DNA of 64,000 nt, from NCBI GenBank assembly GCA_045863295.1, contig BTWA01000006.1, forward strand, positions 64,001 through 128,000. The letters are read 5' to 3'. The stretch comes from Candidatus Hydrogenedentota bacterium (GTDB lineage Bacteria > Hydrogenedentota > Hydrogenedentia > Hydrogenedentales > SLHB01). The notes under the pieces are model-generated. The model had not been told where the DNA came from. It saw nothing but the letters and a program-made list of their open reading frames with translations, and made no database searches. Shown here piece after piece: positions 45,752 through 52,691 of the stretch; the first letter of the stretch is position 1, and each line of letters starts with the position of its first letter. Position numbers and translations under genes: made by a program.

Positions 45752-47017
45752 TTATACGGGCCGGTCGTAAATCTTCTCGGGGCCACGGAAGGGGTCGTAG
45801 ACCGTAATCCCTTCCGGTCCGAAACCCGCTGTAACGTGCGCCCCTTTGCCCGACTCGAAATACGAGAAATTGCGGCGAATTACTTCGCGCGCCGCCTGCA
45901 CGATCAACGCAGTCAAGCGGCCCTCTTCCGCGTCCGGGTAAGACCCTCTTAATGCCTCCGTGCTCCGGCCCAGAAACTTGATTTCAGAAACTTTGGCCAG
46001 ACAGACTACGAGACTGTCAATACCGTAGCCAACATAGGCGTGGCTGCCGTCTTCTCGCCGGACGTCGCGTGTAAAATGACTATTGCGAGTCTGAGTCCCT
46101 TTGCCTTGCTCATGGTAACGCAGACCCCTGTACTGTGAATCGGATTCGATCATTCCGCGCGTGCCGCAAATCATGCTTTCCTGATTCACGGGCGCCTCGA
46201 ATTCATCCGGAACAATCCAATTGTTTACAAAATCGATGCTCATGCCGTTATCAAACTGAATCTTGACCTGAACGGAATCAAAGGCGTCCATGCCATATTC
46301 TTGGCGCAATTTTACTTTCTGGCCCACCGCATGCAGACTTACCGGCTTCACGCCAAAATAGGAAATGAATAGATCCGTCCAATGACAACCGACATAACTG
46401 AACGGATCGCTTTGCTCAGCCCACTTCCGGAACACCTGCGTGGATATCGATAGCGGCTCTTCCAAAACCGCCCGTCCGTACAGCGGTGTCCCAATACGCT
46501 TCGACAAATCGTCGCGAATGCGCAAATGGTCGGGGTCGTAGCGTTTGTGCATATCGACCCCGACCAGACAATGAGACTCACGCGCGGCAGCAACAATGGC
46601 GTCCGCTTCATACCCGTCCAGTGTCATGGGCTTTTCGGTAATCACATGGACACCGCGCTTCAAGGCCGCAAGTATCGGTGCGGCATGCAAATGGTCTGGC
46701 GTGGCGACCGCCAGCACATCCAAATCCGGATGCTCGTTGAGCATGTCTTCCCAAGGAGTCTCGCCATGATATAGCGCGAATTCCATCCCTTGGGGAGCAT
46801 ACTCCCGCAATTTGGATTGGCCTGTCTGTTCCGACCGGGTCGCCAAAGCAATGAAACGGATTTCCACGTCACCCAAGGGTCGGGCAAGCGTGTCCAACCC
46901 CAACCGGCCCAGCCAGGGAGTTAGTCCATTCAAGTGCAATTGGCAAAATGTGCGCATGTGCACATCGCCGCCAAACATTCCCGCGCCAACCAGGCCAACC
47001 GTCAGAACCCGGGTCAT
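45752..47017 (-). CDS. Gfo/Idh/MocA family oxidoreductase
   Basis: GLVGAGMFG, VATPDHLH, HVITEKP, HKRYDP. Confidence 0.9.
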   Translation of the reverse strand: MTRVLTVGLVGAGMFGGDVHMRTFCQLHLNGLTPWLGRLGLDTLARPLGDVEIRFIALATRSEQTGQSKLREYAPQGMEFALYHGETPWEDMLNEHPDLDVLAVATPDHLHAAPILAALKRGVHVITEKPMTLDGYEADAIVAAARESHCLVGVDMHKRYDPDHLRIRDDLSKRIGTPLYGRAVLEEPLSISTQVFRKWAEQSDPFSYVGCHWTDLFISYFGVKPVSLHAVGQKVKLRQEYGMDAFDSVQVKIQFDNGMSIDFVNNWIVPDEFEAPVNQESMICGTRGMIESDSQYRGLRYHEQGKGTQTRNSHFTRDVRREDGSHAYVGYGIDSLVVCLAKVSEIKFLGRSTEALRGSYPDAEEGRLTALIVQAAREVIRRNFSYFESGKGAHVTAGFGPEGITVYDPFRGPEKIYDRPV

Positions 47018-47046
47018 GCCCCACTCCACTTCCTAAAGTAAACGAA

Positions 47047-48075
47047 TTAAATCGCCTCTTCCGCGGCGCCATCCGCGGGTGCCGCCGGTGGCGTCACCTG
47101 CAAATCGGTGACAAGGATGTCAATCTTTAAGGCCGCCTTGCCATCCGCGACAACCTTTTCAATGTGCTCCATTTGCTTCTGACCGGTCAGACCCTCGCGA
47201 ATCTTGCCCGACGCCTCTTCCTTGCTCACTTGGCCCTTCGCTGTGACCGTAAGGAAGTGCCAACCAAACTGCGTCTTGAAAGGTGCCGAGACTTTGCCCA
47301 CTTCGGTGCCGAACGCCACGGACTCAAACTCCGGAACCATCACACCACGAACTACGTTGTCGTAGGCGCCACCATTGTCTTTCGATCCGGGATCGTCGGA
47401 GACTTCCTTGGCCACGTCAGCAAACGCTTCACCATCCGTCACGCGCTTGTGCGCCGCATCAATTTCGACCTTTGCGGTCGTCCAGGCATCTTCGGATGGG
47501 TCATCCACCTTAACCAGAATGTGCGCCACGTTCACCGAATCCAGCTCACCCGCAGTCTTCGACTTTTCGTATTGAGCCTCTATATCTGCATCCGTGACTT
47601 GGACCTCATCCATCTTGGCTTGGGTAAACGCACGAATAGCGCCGCCGCGCGCAATCATGTCCCGAAAGTCAGCTTCCGTAAGTCCTTCAGACTTGAGCGC
47701 GTCCTCGAACGACATACCGGCTGGCATGTTCTTTTTCGTTTCGGCAACCTTGCTATCGATTTCATCGTCTTTCAACGCGAAACCTTCTTTTTGCGCCAGA
47801 ATGAAAAGCACATGATTATCAATCAGGGAATCCAAAATATTCTTCATCTGCTCGGCGGTGAACGCCTCCGGCGGCTCGCTCCCGGTCATCTGGGCCTGCA
47901 TCGCCTGGCGCTGGCGAATCATGGCGATCGCCTTGTCAAACTCCTTCTGGGTCACGGTCTCCGTATCGCCTACCTTGGCAATGACGGCCTCCTCGGCCAT
48001 GGCCGGCGAAACTGCCAACGCGGCAGCCGCTACGCCTGCGGCGACAACGAGGGGCTTCAGAAACGACAAACGCAT
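47047..48075 (-). CDS. Exported parvulin-type peptidylprolyl isomerase (PrsA/SurA-like)
   Basis: AMA/EE signal peptide, SurA-N-like helices, VAHILV, FADVAKEVSDDPGS.DNGG, MVPEFE, FKTQFGWH. Confidence 0.92.
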   Translation of the reverse strand: MRLSFLKPLVVAAGVAAAALAVSPAMAEEAVIAKVGDTETVTQKEFDKAIAMIRQRQAMQAQMTGSEPPEAFTAEQMKNILDSLIDNHVLFILAQKEGFALKDDEIDSKVAETKKNMPAGMSFEDALKSEGLTEADFRDMIARGGAIRAFTQAKMDEVQVTDADIEAQYEKSKTAGELDSVNVAHILVKVDDPSEDAWTTAKVEIDAAHKRVTDGEAFADVAKEVSDDPGSKDNGGAYDNVVRGVMVPEFESVAFGTEVGKVSAPFKTQFGWHFLTVTAKGQVSKEEASGKIREGLTGQKQMEHIEKVVADGKAALKIDILVTDLQVTPPAAPADGAAEEAI

Positions 48076-48348
48076 ACACTGGTCTCCTGGAGCAGGATTT
48101 ATTTGACCTGCTTGTTAACGCGAAACCACGGGGACGGCATGGCCTGGACTGGCTTCAGCAAGGCGTCATGCATTGCGACAGGCAACGAGACGTATGTGGT
48201 TTGCAGCTAAGGACGATTTGGCTTCAGCTTTCTTGAATTTCGATTCTGACGCTGTGGACTCTGCCAGAAGCGCTATACTTTAAATCCGCAGCAATTTTGA
48301 TTCTATGTAAGTAATACCGAATTCAGTGGCCTGCACCTGGCCAAGTCT

Positions 48349-49398
48349 TTACAGGTCCACCGGCCTACCAGTCTCCGCCGATCGATAAATTGCTTCTATT
48401 AGCTCGACTGCGCGCCGGCCTTCCCGGCCCACGATGGCGGGCTCCCGTCCGTCGCGAATGGCAAGCGCAAAATCCTCAATCTGCCTGCGATGCGCTTCGT
48501 GCTTGAGATTGGCCAGTGGATCCGCCGCGCCGGAACCTGTTGCACTGCCCTGATTCAACCGATCCACGATGGCCTTGTCTTCCGGAAGCTCATTCTTGAA
48601 CTTCCACGATACAATTTCGCCATCTTCCAAGACAACCGAACCCTCGGTCCCATGAATCTCCACGCGAGCAGGATGTCCCGGCCAGATCGCTGTACTCCCC
48701 TCAATACAGCCCATGGCCCCGTTCTCAAATTGAAGCATCGCGCACGCCAAGTCTTCGACTTCCAGCCCCTCATGACCTACCAAAGCCGTTTGAGCTGTGA
48801 CGCGCTTCACAGGGCCAAAGTACCAAAGAAGCAAGTCGATCTGGTGAATACCCTGGTTCATTAGACACCCACCGCCATCGAGCTTACGGGTACCGCGCCA
48901 AGCCCCACTATTGTAATACTCTTGGGACCGATACCACTTAATGTACGCATCGCCTAGCACCAATTTGCCAAATCGGCCAGAGTTCAGGGCGCGTTGGATC
49001 TCCCTGGGTCCGTCCGCGAAACGGTACTGAAAGATGCACCCCAACAAAACATTCGCTTCATCTACGGCCGCAAGTATTCGATCAATACGGTCAGTCGATA
49101 CTTCCAACGGCTTTTCAGACAAAATGTGTTTGCCGGCTTTGGCGCAAACCTCGGCAATTTCCGCCCGCATTCCGCTCGGCACGCAGAGACTGACCGCATG
49201 CAAATCCGGCCGCTGTATCATTTCTTTGTAATCCGAATAGACATCCGCGCCGTACTTCCCCGCTAGCGCTTCGGCATTCTTGGGAACCACGTCGGACACG
49301 GCAACGAGCTTTGCAGACGGTATTTCGGATATGGCAAGGGCATGAATCGGGCCGATATTTCCGCATCCAATTAACCCGAAGCCAATTCGGTCAGCCAT
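48349..49398 (-). CDS. Gfo/Idh/MocA family oxidoreductase
   Basis: GLIGCGNIG, KHILSEKPL, WRGT..LDGGGCLMNQGIHQID, VEDLA. Confidence 0.92.
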   Translation of the reverse strand: MADRIGFGLIGCGNIGPIHALAISEIPSAKLVAVSDVVPKNAEALAGKYGADVYSDYKEMIQRPDLHAVSLCVPSGMRAEIAEVCAKAGKHILSEKPLEVSTDRIDRILAAVDEANVLLGCIFQYRFADGPREIQRALNSGRFGKLVLGDAYIKWYRSQEYYNSGAWRGTRKLDGGGCLMNQGIHQIDLLLWYFGPVKRVTAQTALVGHEGLEVEDLACAMLQFENGAMGCIEGSTAIWPGHPARVEIHGTEGSVVLEDGEIVSWKFKNELPEDKAIVDRLNQGSATGSGAADPLANLKHEAHRRQIEDFALAIRDGREPAIVGREGRRAVELIEAIYRSAETGRPVDL

Positions 49399-49497
49399 TG
49401 TGTACACCTTTCTTCATACGGGCACCCCAAGCCTAGCCTGTCGGATCCCACGATTGGGCTGCAAAAGCAGATATGATGAAGGGCGAAACATGGCAAT

Positions 49498-50493
49498 TCA
49501 AGCTGTAGTTTCCCCGTCACCGTTCAAATCCGCTTTCCGCAGGGCTGATCTTCGTGTGCGAAACAATAAAAGCAACCCCAGACCGAGAGCGGCGAGCCCG
49601 ATCCATTGGGACACGGCCAAACCGCCGATCACGTACACCCGGGTGGCCAGAAGGCTATCGAGGGTCAAACGCAATACCCCGTAGGATAGGAGCACAAAGG
49701 CAAGCGTCGCACCCCGACATGGACCCTTCCGATAGATCTGCTCTGCCACAATCCCCAATGCCAAGGCAGCCAACGAGAAAAGAATCGGCGTGGGCCAAAC
49801 CGGAAGGCTTCGCGTCTGACCCGCGAGATGCGCGATGTCGGTTGCGCTCTTGCCTGAGACTTCGTCCGGAAAGCGGTCCAATAATCGTTGAAACTGCTCA
49901 CGGCGCAAATGCAGGAACTGTTCGTGGCCCCAGAGGTTGGTTTCGCCTTCCGCGGTGGTGTGAACCAATCCGCGAGGGGGCACAATCAAATTGGAGCGCC
50001 ATTGGGTCTCATACGGTGTGCTTCCATAGGGATAGGTTATGCCCAGATAGGCAGGCGCAAGGCCACCGGCACAGCACCCGGCAAATACGCATCCCCATTT
50101 AGCCACCGCAAGACCAAGTAGTGCCGAAGGAGCGAGCGCGTCGAGATAGTCGACCGCTTTGAGTCGCAGTGGCGCGAGTCCAATCAACAATGCTACTCCT
50201 GCGCCAATGGCAAATACCGTAAAGGAGGACGGTGCCTTTTGAAAAGGAGAGAACACACGCAAGCCCAATGCCTCGTGCCGAGGATCAAACAACAGGGTGG
50301 ACCGGCTCAACATCCATCCGCATAACAACGCCACGGACAGCATGGGGATGAGTAAAATAAAGTGTATGTCGTCCCTTTTGACACGCCAGAATAGGGTGGC
50401 AAGCGCGGTCAATACGGCAAGTAGTATAGCTGTCGAATAGGCGCCGATGTATGTATTGCCTATGGAAAACAGAACCGGACGCACCTGTGTCAC
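49498..50493 (-). CDS. Divergent prolipoprotein diacylglyceryl transferase (Lgt) family protein
   Basis: VRPVLFSIG start, YLDALAPS...KWGCVFAGCCAG, GITYP, PVWPTP, YGVLR, VSQWIG; ~7 TMs; several canonical residues altered. Confidence 0.8.
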   Translation of the reverse strand: MTQVRPVLFSIGNTYIGAYSTAILLAVLTALATLFWRVKRDDIHFILLIPMLSVALLCGWMLSRSTLLFDPRHEALGLRVFSPFQKAPSSFTVFAIGAGVALLIGLAPLRLKAVDYLDALAPSALLGLAVAKWGCVFAGCCAGGLAPAYLGITYPYGSTPYETQWRSNLIVPPRGLVHTTAEGETNLWGHEQFLHLRREQFQRLLDRFPDEVSGKSATDIAHLAGQTRSLPVWPTPILFSLAALALGIVAEQIYRKGPCRGATLAFVLLSYGVLRLTLDSLLATRVYVIGGLAVSQWIGLAALGLGLLLLFRTRRSALRKADLNGDGETTA

Positions 50494-50495
50494 CT

Positions 50496-50536
50496 AAAAA
50501 CGTTGGAGACACCCCACTTGGAAAGGGTGTCTCCAA
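50496..50536 (-). terminator. Rho-independent terminator/attenuator between the peptide gene and the lgt-like gene
   Basis: 12-bp perfect stem TTGGAGACACCC / GGGTGTCTCCAA, 10-nt loop, then CGTTTTT on the minus strand, ending 2 nt before the lgt-like GTG. Confidence 0.75.
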
Positions 50537-50578
50537 TTTGCCAAAGTTTCTATGCCGCACAAACGCGCGGCACGTCTG

Positions 50579-50776
50579 CTACACTTCCAGTCCCGCCGCT
50601 TCAAGTTCGGCAAGGCACTCTTCCAACGTAATATCTTCCAAACTTACGTCGTCGCCCGTGTCGCCCGAATCGTCCGTTTCGTCCGCATGCGAAAGCAACG
50701 AAGGGCCAAACAACGCCAGCACAAGCGCCAGCAAACCACTTCCTAGCATCCATTTCCAACTCTTTGACTTGCTCAT
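50579..50776 (-). CDS. Small secreted acidic peptide (65 aa, single Cys)
   Basis: SD AGGAGG 6 nt upstream; Lys-rich N-terminus, hydrophobic core, SHA/DE cleavage; own promoter and terminator. Confidence 0.75.
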   Translation of the reverse strand: MSKSKSWKWMLGSGLLALVLALFGPSLLSHADETDDSGDTGDDVSLEDITLEECLAELEAAGLEV

Positions 50777-50852
50777 GCGATTCCTCCTGATTGCGGTGCA
50801 ATCTTGCGGGAGATGCCCTGTCTACGAATCCCCCGGCCGTCCACACACCTAC

Positions 50853-50880
50853 AGTATATCGAAACGGCACGATTATGCAA
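50853..50880 (-). promoter_or_regulatory. Candidate sigma70 promoter for the peptide gene
   Basis: TTGCAT-N16-TATACT on the minus strand, ~76 nt upstream of the ATG. Confidence 0.5.
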
Positions 50881-50913
50881 AGACGTAACAAACAAAGAGT
50901 GGCCAACAACTTC

Positions 50914-52446
50914 CTAAGACTTGGCGGGCAAGGAGCGAATTCCCCCGCGCAACGAGAATACGTTTGGATATCCCTGTTTGTGGAACACCCGCGCTGCACT
51001 TCGGCTGCGGTGTCCATGGCTACAGCACAACACATAGGACCGGTCACATTCAAAAGGCGGAGAGGCAAAATCGATGCGGCTGAGGGGAACGGATAGTACG
51101 GCGCTCAGGGAAATCGGTTCGCGCTCAACCTCGTCCAATTCTCGCACGTCAACCAACGTGAACCTTTCTATCGTCCCAATGAGAATCTGCTGGTAGTCAA
51201 GCTCTATGGACTCGTCCGGCCCGTAATTCTCCGGGGACAAATCGGATATGGAAGGATTCGCCCCGCACACCGGACACCCGGAACTCTTTTCAATGACCAC
51301 CTTCCGTATACTCAGATCCAGACAATCCACGATTGCAATTCCATTGACTGGGCCTCCCGGAATAGCCAAGAGTTGACGCAAGGCTTCCATGGCCTGCATG
51401 GCCCCGAGAATTCCCGGAATAGCCCCAAGCACACCCACCTCGGCACACGTACCCACACAGCCCGGATCCGGCATGGTCGGCCAAAGGCACCGCAGACACG
51501 CCGATTCCCCAGGAACATAAACCTGAATCTGGCCTTCAAATTGATAAAGGCTGCCAAAAACTGCCGGCATACCCAGTAAGACTGCAGCGTCGTTGATGAG
51601 AAATTTTGTCGGAAAATTGTCCGTGCAGTCGAGCACCAAATCATACTGGTTGAATAGGGAATACGCGTTTTCGGCCGTGAGACGATGATCGTGTTGGCGC
51701 AATTCTATACCCGGATTCAGCGCTCGAAGTCGATGAAGGGCAAGTTCGATCTTCGGCTTACCAACGTCGATGGCGCTGTACAAGGGCTGACGATGCAAAT
51801 TGCTGATATCCAACGAGTCGGATTCACACAGGCCGAGAACGCCGATTCCCGCGGACGCCAGATAAGTTGCTGCGGGAGAACCCAACCCACCCAGCCCCAC
51901 AACAAGTACGCGGGCGTTGGCCAGTCTATGTTGTCCGTCTGTACCGATTTCGCGAAGCCGGATTTGACGGTCGTAATACAGAGCCGGATCGGGTGCAACG
52001 CTCGATCCCACTGGGCCATGTCCGTGTGCAGCGCAACGCTCGCAATTGACCCACCCCGAATTCCCGTCGATGTAGTACTCCTTTTTCCATATGGGTACTC
52101 GGTGCTTGACCTCGTCTATAATGTACCGGCAGGCTTTGAACGCCTCGTCGCGATGTGCGGAAACCGCACCTACCCAGACGGCCATGTCGCCAATGCCCAG
52201 CCCGCCAATGCGATGTACGCAGTGCGCGGTGATCAACCCGAAACGGCGAATGGCGTCCTCAACAATCCTGCACCCCTCAGCGACGGCCATCGACTCGTAG
52301 GCTTCATATTCCAGCCGGGTAACTGCTTTACCCTCGTTATGATTACGAACCCAGCCTTCAAACGATGTGAAGGCTCCGGCTTCAGGCGCAATCATCGTTG
52401 CTTTTAATGTGGCGGTGTCGATGGTGTCTTGACTCAATGAAAACAC
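50914..52446 (-). CDS. MoaE - MoeB/ThiF - rhodanese fusion protein
   Basis: MoaE (GAFTSFEGWVRNHN, LEYEAY, SAHRDEAF, VPIWKKE), MoeB (YDRQI, GLGGLGSP, SNLHRQ, DCTDNF, CLRC, CPVC), rhodanese (VDVRE, CCSHGHRS, SLRGG). GTG 2 nt after the moaD stop. Confidence 0.9.
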   Translation of the reverse strand: MFSLSQDTIDTATLKATMIAPEAGAFTSFEGWVRNHNEGKAVTRLEYEAYESMAVAEGCRIVEDAIRRFGLITAHCVHRIGGLGIGDMAVWVGAVSAHRDEAFKACRYIIDEVKHRVPIWKKEYYIDGNSGWVNCERCAAHGHGPVGSSVAPDPALYYDRQIRLREIGTDGQHRLANARVLVVGLGGLGSPAATYLASAGIGVLGLCESDSLDISNLHRQPLYSAIDVGKPKIELALHRLRALNPGIELRQHDHRLTAENAYSLFNQYDLVLDCTDNFPTKFLINDAAVLLGMPAVFGSLYQFEGQIQVYVPGESACLRCLWPTMPDPGCVGTCAEVGVLGAIPGILGAMQAMEALRQLLAIPGGPVNGIAIVDCLDLSIRKVVIEKSSGCPVCGANPSISDLSPENYGPDESIELDYQQILIGTIERFTLVDVRELDEVEREPISLSAVLSVPLSRIDFASPPFECDRSYVLCCSHGHRSRSAARVFHKQGYPNVFSLRGGIRSLPAKS

Positions 52447-52448
52447 CG

Positions 52449-52691
52449 TTAGCCTCCCGCCACCGGAGGAACGAAGACGACCGTGTCGCCTTCGGACAGC
52501 GGTGTGTCCCAATCGCCAAACGTCTCGTTAATCGCTACCTTAAGTTGTTCAAGGTGCAAAGTAAATCCATGAGTTCGCTGCAATTCACCGTACAAAGCGC
52601 GGGGAGTGGACGCCGTTGTACGCACCTCTTCAGCGGAAAGGCCTCGCTGCTCGCGCATCAACGCAAAATATCGTACATGGACAGTAATCAT
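52449..52691 (-). CDS. moaD: Molybdopterin synthase sulfur carrier subunit
   Basis: VRYFALMRE, VAINE, C-terminal FVPPVAGG. Confidence 0.95.
   Translation of the reverse strand: MITVHVRYFALMREQRGLSAEEVRTTASTPRALYGELQRTHGFTLHLEQLKVAINETFGDWDTPLSEGDTVVFVPPVAGG

Follow-up and report, generated by a model that had tools for sequence, protein, structure and literature searches.

Lgt is seen as a housekeeping enzyme with one purpose, bound to the lipobox. The nearest published system that we found to the one described here is that of the DAG-RiPPs, a group of ribosomally made peptides with post-translational modifications (RiPPs) whose precursors carry a canonical lipobox and use the housekeeping Lgt, LspA and Lnt after a cytoplasmic MNIO enzyme (an oxidative enzyme dependent on multinuclear non-heme iron); the accessible part of that report describes no dedicated Lgt (PMC13056109). 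A second, divergent Lgt (MSMEG_5408, with N146 replaced by Cys) occurs in M. smegmatis, where it is taken to be a general Lgt of weak activity; the available text of the source describes no dedicated peptide partner for it (10.1101/2025.03.27.645668). Here we report on a locus in a 64,000-nt stretch of DNA from Candidatus Hydrogenedentota bacterium (the window), in which the gene of a small signal-peptide-bearing peptide precedes the gene of an Lgt-family membrane enzyme (module at 49498-50881, minus strand). As judged by genome comparison, precursor-like peptides and a dedicated Lgt paralog firmly constitute a conserved module that is self-contained.

The first evidence for this conclusion is gene pairing. 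In each of the loci containing a full-length enzyme gene together with its upstream DNA (11/11), the enzyme is preceded on the same strand, at a distance of ~10-170 nt, by one to five homologous peptide genes. These paired loci are the window itself, an in-genome paralog on contig 12, G011, G034 (L009/L014/L057 counted as one locus), G053, G118, L013 (from a metagenome-assembled genome, MAG, labelled Planctomycetales) and the metagenome loci L053, L054, L055 and L056. The second pair of the window's own genome (on contig 12) consists of a 51-aa open reading frame (ORF) with a similar signal peptide and a GEC-containing tail, located ~100 nt upstream of a 328-aa paralog of the enzyme. The largest tandem arrays contain five peptide genes (G011) and four (L053).

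The enzyme subfamily is rare and sharply bounded. An exhaustive profile search over 1.84 billion protein representatives returned 6227 proteins at E <= 0.001, among which 15 representatives scored at least 209.8 bits and the next one 132.7 bits; all members of the top-scoring group carry [AV]K at the signature position. Among 135 genomes of the phylum, the enzyme is present in five and the peptide in six, namely the same five and G013, where the peptide gene is located ~100 nt from a contig end and the enzyme may simply be unassembled. The peptide profile (hidden Markov model, HMM) failed to detect a single match in 39 other loci, among them this genome's four remaining Lgt loci and ~30 loci of more distant Lgt homologues. 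Likewise, manual inspection revealed no signal-peptide ORFs upstream of the distant Lys- or GCC-type Lgt genes (L015, L017-L021, L025, L027 and L028). No other conserved neighbours were found across the module loci, the flanking genes varying from one to another (SDR, class-III aminotransferase, GH31, a GGDEF response regulator, a spermidine-synthase-like protein); therefore the peptide-enzyme pair is self-contained. A radical SAM gene was likewise not seen beside the module. Overall, a dedicated peptide-enzyme pair is well supported by these comparisons.

The existence of homologues in 11 loci also identifies the 65-aa ORF of the window as a real gene. Its product starts with a signal (residues 1-31) composed of a basic Trp-containing N-terminus, a hydrophobic core, an LFGP motif and a terminal LLSHA (SHA), followed by a 34-aa tail, DETDDSGDTGDDVSLEDITLEECLAELEAAGLEV, with 14 Asp/Glu and no Lys/Arg. 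The only Cys of this tail is Cys54 (codon TGC, 50617-50615), and a lipobox (pattern [LVI][ASTVI][GAS]C) is absent. These features extend to the entire family of 23 distinct peptides, whose profile was built from a 9-row alignment with invariant M1, L22, F23, P25 and C54. The conserved signal peptide (basic N-terminus, Trp, hydrophobic core, LF[AG]P) ends with an AxA-like sequence 5-6 residues on, this AxA-type cleavage site being kept in nearly all peptides. Every one of the 23 peptides has exactly one tail Cys (15-29 residues past the Pro of LF[AG]P and 2-14 residues from the C-terminus), and none of the 23 has a lipobox. The profile retrieves members outside the training set with per-genome E-values from 1e-14 to 7e-6.

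The tails are short and hypervariable between lineages, and they are conserved inside subgroups, as illustrated by AAAKGQYTWLPECLE, common to L046, L054 and L055/56, and by RCPIPA.GDV, common to G011 and G118. This within-lineage conservation argues that the exported part itself is functional. The overall arrangement, a conserved leader with variable cores encoded by often multicopy genes next to a modifying-type enzyme, is that of a RiPP-like cluster. A separate observation concerns a second Cys located inside the hydrophobic core of five of the 23 peptides (L008/L045, L039 and L053), always in the context C-G-L-[FL]-[AG]-P.

The enzyme of the window matches the Pfam LGT family (PF01790) with 56.2 bits (gathering cut-off 24.9) over profile positions 1-239 of 240. 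Its AF2 model, built on 19 sequences (pLDDT 89.3, pTM 0.84), displays seven transmembrane helices, and a Foldseek search with this model yielded E. coli Lgt (5azb; E 1.8e-7, probability 1.00, TM-scores 0.59/0.67) as the only PDB match at E <= 0.001. By analogy of fold, the active site is predicted to face the periplasm. Between the fourth and the fifth long helices the model places ~95 periplasmic residues (~136-231) arranged in short strands and helices. The corresponding head domain comprises 17-33 residues in three other species for which the available text gives its size; the head and arm domains are described there as the most variable parts of Lgt, argued to govern substrate handling, and the head is proposed to position the preprolipoprotein linker (10.1101/2025.03.27.645668).

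The residue equivalences were derived from an HMM alignment to E. coli Lgt combined with the 19-row family alignment. A 13-residue Lgt motif (Y26-H103-G104-G142-R143-G145-N146-E151-G154-Y235-R239-E243-R246) is given in the part of the same study available to us (10.1101/2025.03.27.645668), and the window subfamily does not carry it in full. The retained positions are Y26 (Y16), G154 (G140), Y235 (Y268, in at least 90% of the sequences) and R239 (R272, invariant), with G145 being mostly Gly or Ala. The signature AKWGCVFAGCCAG is followed later in the sequence by YGVLRLTLD, and the residues invariant in all 19 sequences are K129, C132, G136, C137, C138, G140, R272 and D276. The enzyme also shows the replacements N146C and E151C, a (CC) variation reported among Lgt proteins in the accessible part of that study (10.1101/2025.03.27.645668).

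The Cys-rich signature (C..GCC) was considered as a mark of altered chemistry and rejected. The same signature is present in the canonical Lgt of this genome (GRIGCFLNGCCFG) and in every motif-bearing protein among P0017-P0151, and two Bacteroidota genomes carry GKIGCLLAGCCHG, a form with Lys, in their highest-scoring Lgt. The earlier note on this DNA had stressed the active-site context, but such a signature is normal for this phylum and for Bacteroidota. On the alignments and the model, the subfamily is set apart by the combination of Lys129, Asp276, a lost R246 equivalent and a large head.

Some of the Lgt homologues returned by the exhaustive search carry insertions at the head-domain position, PDZ domains in several of them (P0056, P0059, P0066 and also P0028) and an EF-hand in P0134. 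PDZ domains bind peptide tails. Head-domain inserts may represent a general route to Lgt substrate selectivity. A search for radical SAM fusions of related Lgt homologues revealed none in the 17 proteins examined, which have PDZ and EF-hand inserts instead.

The window enzyme is not the housekeeping Lgt of its host. The genome (6.3 Mb, 96% complete) contains six PF01790 matches, of which the window gene is only the fifth (54.5 bits). The best one (205.6 bits, G000:C6:59010-59825) abuts lspA (C6:59866-60291), and this best-scoring lgt-lspA pair, which looks like a housekeeping lipoprotein operon, is located on the same contig as the module, about 4-5 kb ahead of the window's first base. The window enzyme is thus neither the sole nor the best lgt, nor is it linked to lspA. 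A second lspA match of the genome is found on contig 11. The earlier note had suggested that the paralog may modify or bind the peptide, to be checked by looking for small signal-peptide ORFs upstream of paralog homologues, for conservation of the Cys and for a canonical lgt elsewhere. Each of these was found (in 11/11 loci, in 23/23 distinct peptides and as the lspA-linked best of six matches, respectively), so that its idea of a dedicated pair is well supported; the attenuator that accompanied it is not a conserved feature.

Within the window, the unit outlined in that note (a Shine-Dalgarno AGGAGG, a 65-aa ORF with a signal ending in SHA, no lipobox and a one-Cys tail, and an Lgt gene, all on the minus strand) was borne out in both coordinates and features:

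50853..50881, minus strand: sigma70-like promoter candidate TTTGCA-17-TATACT, 9/12 matches
50783..50788, minus strand: Shine-Dalgarno AGGAGG, 6 nt upstream of the ATG, read from sequence
50579..50776, minus strand: precursor peptide gene, 65 aa, ATG at 50776, own-genome HMM match E 7.5e-17
50552..50573, minus strand: first intergenic hairpin, 9-bp stem, immediately 3' of the peptide stop codon
50496..50536, minus strand: terminator-like hairpin, 13 pairs (7 G-C), loop 8, tail CGTTTTT, stem 50536-50503
49498..50493, minus strand: Lgt-family membrane enzyme gene, 331 aa (start GTG 50493) or 328 aa (start GTG 50484)

The translation of the enzyme may start at GTG 50484 instead of GTG 50493, as the former has a better ribosome site (AGGTGA, 6 nt upstream) and agrees with the 328-aa database gene call (P0001). 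The sigma70-like promoter proposed previously is present as a site, the sole one in 48000-52000, yet shuffles contain 2.4 such sites on average, making it not significant by itself. The proposed 12-bp terminator is likewise present as a hairpin, although with 13 pairs according to the terminator scan, where it is the best terminator-like site of the region. Its T5 run (50500-50496) ends 2 nt ahead of the longest-ORF start (GTG 50493), and the intergenic region folds with z = -3.63 (0/200 shuffles fold equally well), consistent with a possible partial terminator between the peptide and enzyme genes. A conserved attenuator, on the other hand, is not supported, since only two of the seven intergenic regions fold clearly better than shuffles, that of the window and that of L008 (z = -2.30), the remaining five loci ranging from -0.07 to -1.69.

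Immediately upstream of the peptide promoter region lies a gene (50914-52512, minus strand) encoding a 532-aa triple fusion of MoaE, a MoeB/ThiF adenylyltransferase and a rhodanese, with MoaD-like and MobA-like ORFs further upstream. Downstream of the enzyme (45752-49407, minus strand) are genes for two GFO/IDH/MocA oxidoreductases and a SurA-like peptidyl-prolyl isomerase with a signal peptide (47047-48075). None of these GFO/IDH/MocA and SurA-like neighbours is conserved beside the module in other genomes.

Structure prediction of the enzyme-peptide complex (with alignments for both chains) gave a median ipSAE of 0.52 (runs of 0.52, 0.48 and 0.69) as compared with 0.01 for the best of three controls; the pLDDT of the partner was at least 57, and at least 90% of the contacts agreed between runs. 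Of 157 solved complexes, 116 reach the mark applied to such predictions, as do 2 of 215 mismatched pairs, and a pass at ipSAE 0.60 or under is weak, as it is shared by only 18 of those 157 complexes and by both passing mismatches. Hence the predicted complex lends weak support to the pairing.

Among the 23 runs listed (mostly sludge or bioreactor metagenomes) there is one metatranscriptome, with a single matching contig of 229 nt, free of differences, that spans 50594-50822 (the peptide ORF and its leader). This is only a hint that the peptide gene is expressed, as DNA carry-over is possible and the contigs do not contain transcript ends. These RNA data are assembled contigs, so that the missing coverage of the enzyme gene in that run carries no information on read-through. 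Sludge metagenomes from other studies (runs X2 and X4) also contain near-identical DNA (pieces of at least 99% identity to 49400-50950); therefore the organism or its close relative is recurrent in such reactors.

The reading that we prefer, and to which we give about an even chance, is that the peptides are dedicated substrates of the enzyme, S-lipidated at their non-lipobox Cys. Sec would export the peptide, which would stay tethered by its signal peptide; the enlarged periplasmic head domain of the paralog would capture the tail; the enzyme would then load the thiol of the tail Cys with diacylglyceryl, or a lipid related to it, taken from a membrane phospholipid; and, finally, signal peptidase I would free a small lipopeptide anchored via a Cys near its C-terminus, and not via an N-terminal lipobox Cys. 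The observations on which this reading is based are the gene pairing, the peptide family with its invariant Cys, the Lgt fold, the retained equivalents of Arg239, Tyr235, Tyr26 and Gly154, and the separate housekeeping lgt-lspA pair. From them we infer that the peptide is the substrate, what chemistry is involved and in which order the steps occur.

A broader version of the same idea is tenable, although we hold it to be somewhat less than an even prospect. It states that the Lgt-family enzyme would by itself mature, and thereby define, a new class of ribosomal lipopeptides: Sec-exported precursors of the signal-peptidase-I type would be S-lipidated at an internal Cys that lies outside any lipobox and close to their C-terminus. 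Recognition would depend on the signal peptide and the enlarged head, the products would be membrane-anchored near their C-terminal end, and the precursor arrays would be expandable in tandem.

Several points weigh against S-lipidation of the peptides by this enzyme. The transfer of lipid to an internal tail Cys remains the inferred step, and that Cys is found 10-22 residues past the predicted signal-peptidase-I site, far from the position at the membrane face where canonical Lgt meets its Cys. The NCBIfam lgt equivalogs score far under their cut-offs (NF000778, 46.8 vs 334; TIGR00544, 23.5 vs 118.9). The motif departures G142A, R143K (the invariant K129), E243D (the invariant D276) and R246L affect positions that E. 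coli Lgt requires or that form part of the motif, and an equivalent of His103 is not evident, H103 and G104 being aligned to Thr and Val in the HMM alignment (equivalents uncertain). The complex prediction provided only weak support and no contacts. G118 has four orphan peptide genes remote from the enzyme and G034 has one; peptide and enzyme therefore need not be linked, although each of these genomes carries the enzyme gene in trans. Finally, a single phylum and a few lineages contribute most of the evidence, so that the loci are not fully independent.

One of these orphan genes (L039, G118:C59) has as its neighbour the class-III aminotransferase gene that is also found beside the G011 array of five peptide genes with its enzyme (L045, G011:C52), whereas the G118 enzyme is located on a different contig. 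Judged by synteny, the enzyme gene was apparently lost from the array at the G118 site, or was never acquired by it.

Of the other explanations, the one that survives best, though in our opinion unlikely, is that the peptide is not a substrate and acts as a single-pass membrane partner (a subunit, a regulator or a pseudo-substrate), its uncleaved signal being docked as a transmembrane helix in the lateral cleft of the enzyme. Indeed, the most conserved part of the peptides is the hydrophobic segment with LF[AG]P and not the tail, this motif looks, in our own reading, like a lipobox (L-x-[AG]-C) in which Pro replaces the Cys, and the two chains are joined, albeit with weak support, in the predicted complex (0.52 vs 0.01 for the best control). 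Small membrane proteins often accompany membrane enzymes. A subunit of fixed stoichiometry, however, is hard to reconcile with one to five divergent tandem copies per enzyme and with orphan copies elsewhere, and an uncleaved signal with the AxA-type site kept 5-6 residues past the Pro in nearly all peptides. Moreover, the sole invariant residue of the tail is a Cys, the very residue that Lgt enzymes modify.

Slightly less probable still would be an enzyme that acts on the peptide Cys with a different chemistry, by transferring another lipid or head group or by using a donor other than phosphatidylglycerol. The replacements R143K, R246L, E243D and G142A are specific for the subfamily, whereas the canonical Lgt of this genome keeps Arg, Arg, Glu and Gly. 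According to the accessible part of the Lgt study cited above, R143 and R239 hold the phosphatidylglycerol phosphate in position, and Lgt subgroups that lack R143/R239 may use another mechanism (10.1101/2025.03.27.645668). Such a shift is not favored by the retention of the R239, Y235, Y26 and G154 equivalents in the window subfamily, nor by the nature of the R143K replacement itself, as Lys is still able to bind phosphate and the best-scoring Lgt homologues of Bacteroidota also have Lys there, in GKIGCLLAGCC.

We consider it improbable that the peptides are Sec-dependent bacteriocin-like or signalling peptides with the membrane protein as their immunity or receptor protein. Such systems would match the layout (a small secreted peptide, a hairpin and a polytopic membrane protein) and the tandem variable peptide genes. 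They would leave unexplained both the single invariant Cys and the catalytic-site equivalents that are invariant across the subfamily, and the window tail, with its 14 acidic and no basic residues, is unlike typical membrane-active bacteriocins. A chance neighbourhood, in which the small ORF has no connection with the Lgt paralog or is no gene at all, has hardly any probability left, for although the promoter-like match is not significant by itself, this explanation is contradicted by the comparative data (pairing at 11/11 loci, HMM E-values as low as 1e-14 for peptides that the profile was not built from, agreement between the phyletic patterns of 5 and 6 of 135 genomes, and 0 matches in 39 control loci).

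If S-lipidation by a dedicated paralog is true, such a paralog together with its non-lipobox Cys peptides would widen the rules of bacterial protein and peptide lipidation. It would also provide a new enzyme class for ribosomal lipopeptide biosynthesis, with a simple two-gene tool for attaching lipids to chosen peptides, and would reveal a purpose for the variable head domain of Lgt. The hosts of the module are uncultured sludge bacteria (Hydrogenedentota and one Planctomycetales MAG), and therefore heterologous expression is the realistic route to a test.

A literature search, which left subscription journals and preprint supplements outside its range, failed to turn up any account of an Lgt paralog that is paired with dedicated peptides lacking a lipobox. 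When compared with E. coli Lgt (phosphatidylglycerol:prolipoprotein diacylglyceryl transferase; PDB 5AZB/5AZC; PF01790), the window enzyme has the same fold and the equivalents of Y26, G154, Y235 and R239; it differs by the ~95-residue head, by G142A/R143K/E243D/R246L and by being a non-housekeeping copy. Unlike the substrates of the E. coli enzyme, the presumed peptide substrates have no lipobox, and their Cys is located well beyond a site of the signal-peptidase-I type. With MSMEG_5408 the window enzyme shares the status of an extra divergent Lgt beside a major copy, and the replacement of N146 by Cys; in contrast to the mycobacterial case, the canonical copy in the window's phylum also has N146C/E151C. 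Unlike in usual RiPPs, the leader of the window-type precursors is a Sec signal peptide. The DAG-RiPPs, in the available account (PMC13056109), likewise start from small ribosomal signal-peptide precursors and end with diacylglyceryl on Cys via Lgt-type chemistry, which for the window module is the proposed outcome. The module differs from them in having neither a lipobox signal peptide nor a clustered MNIO-type enzyme or other conserved neighbour, the dedicated Lgt paralog being its only enzyme. Overall, the constant pairing of a divergent Lgt paralog with single-Cys peptides suggests an undescribed way of making lipid-tagged peptides.

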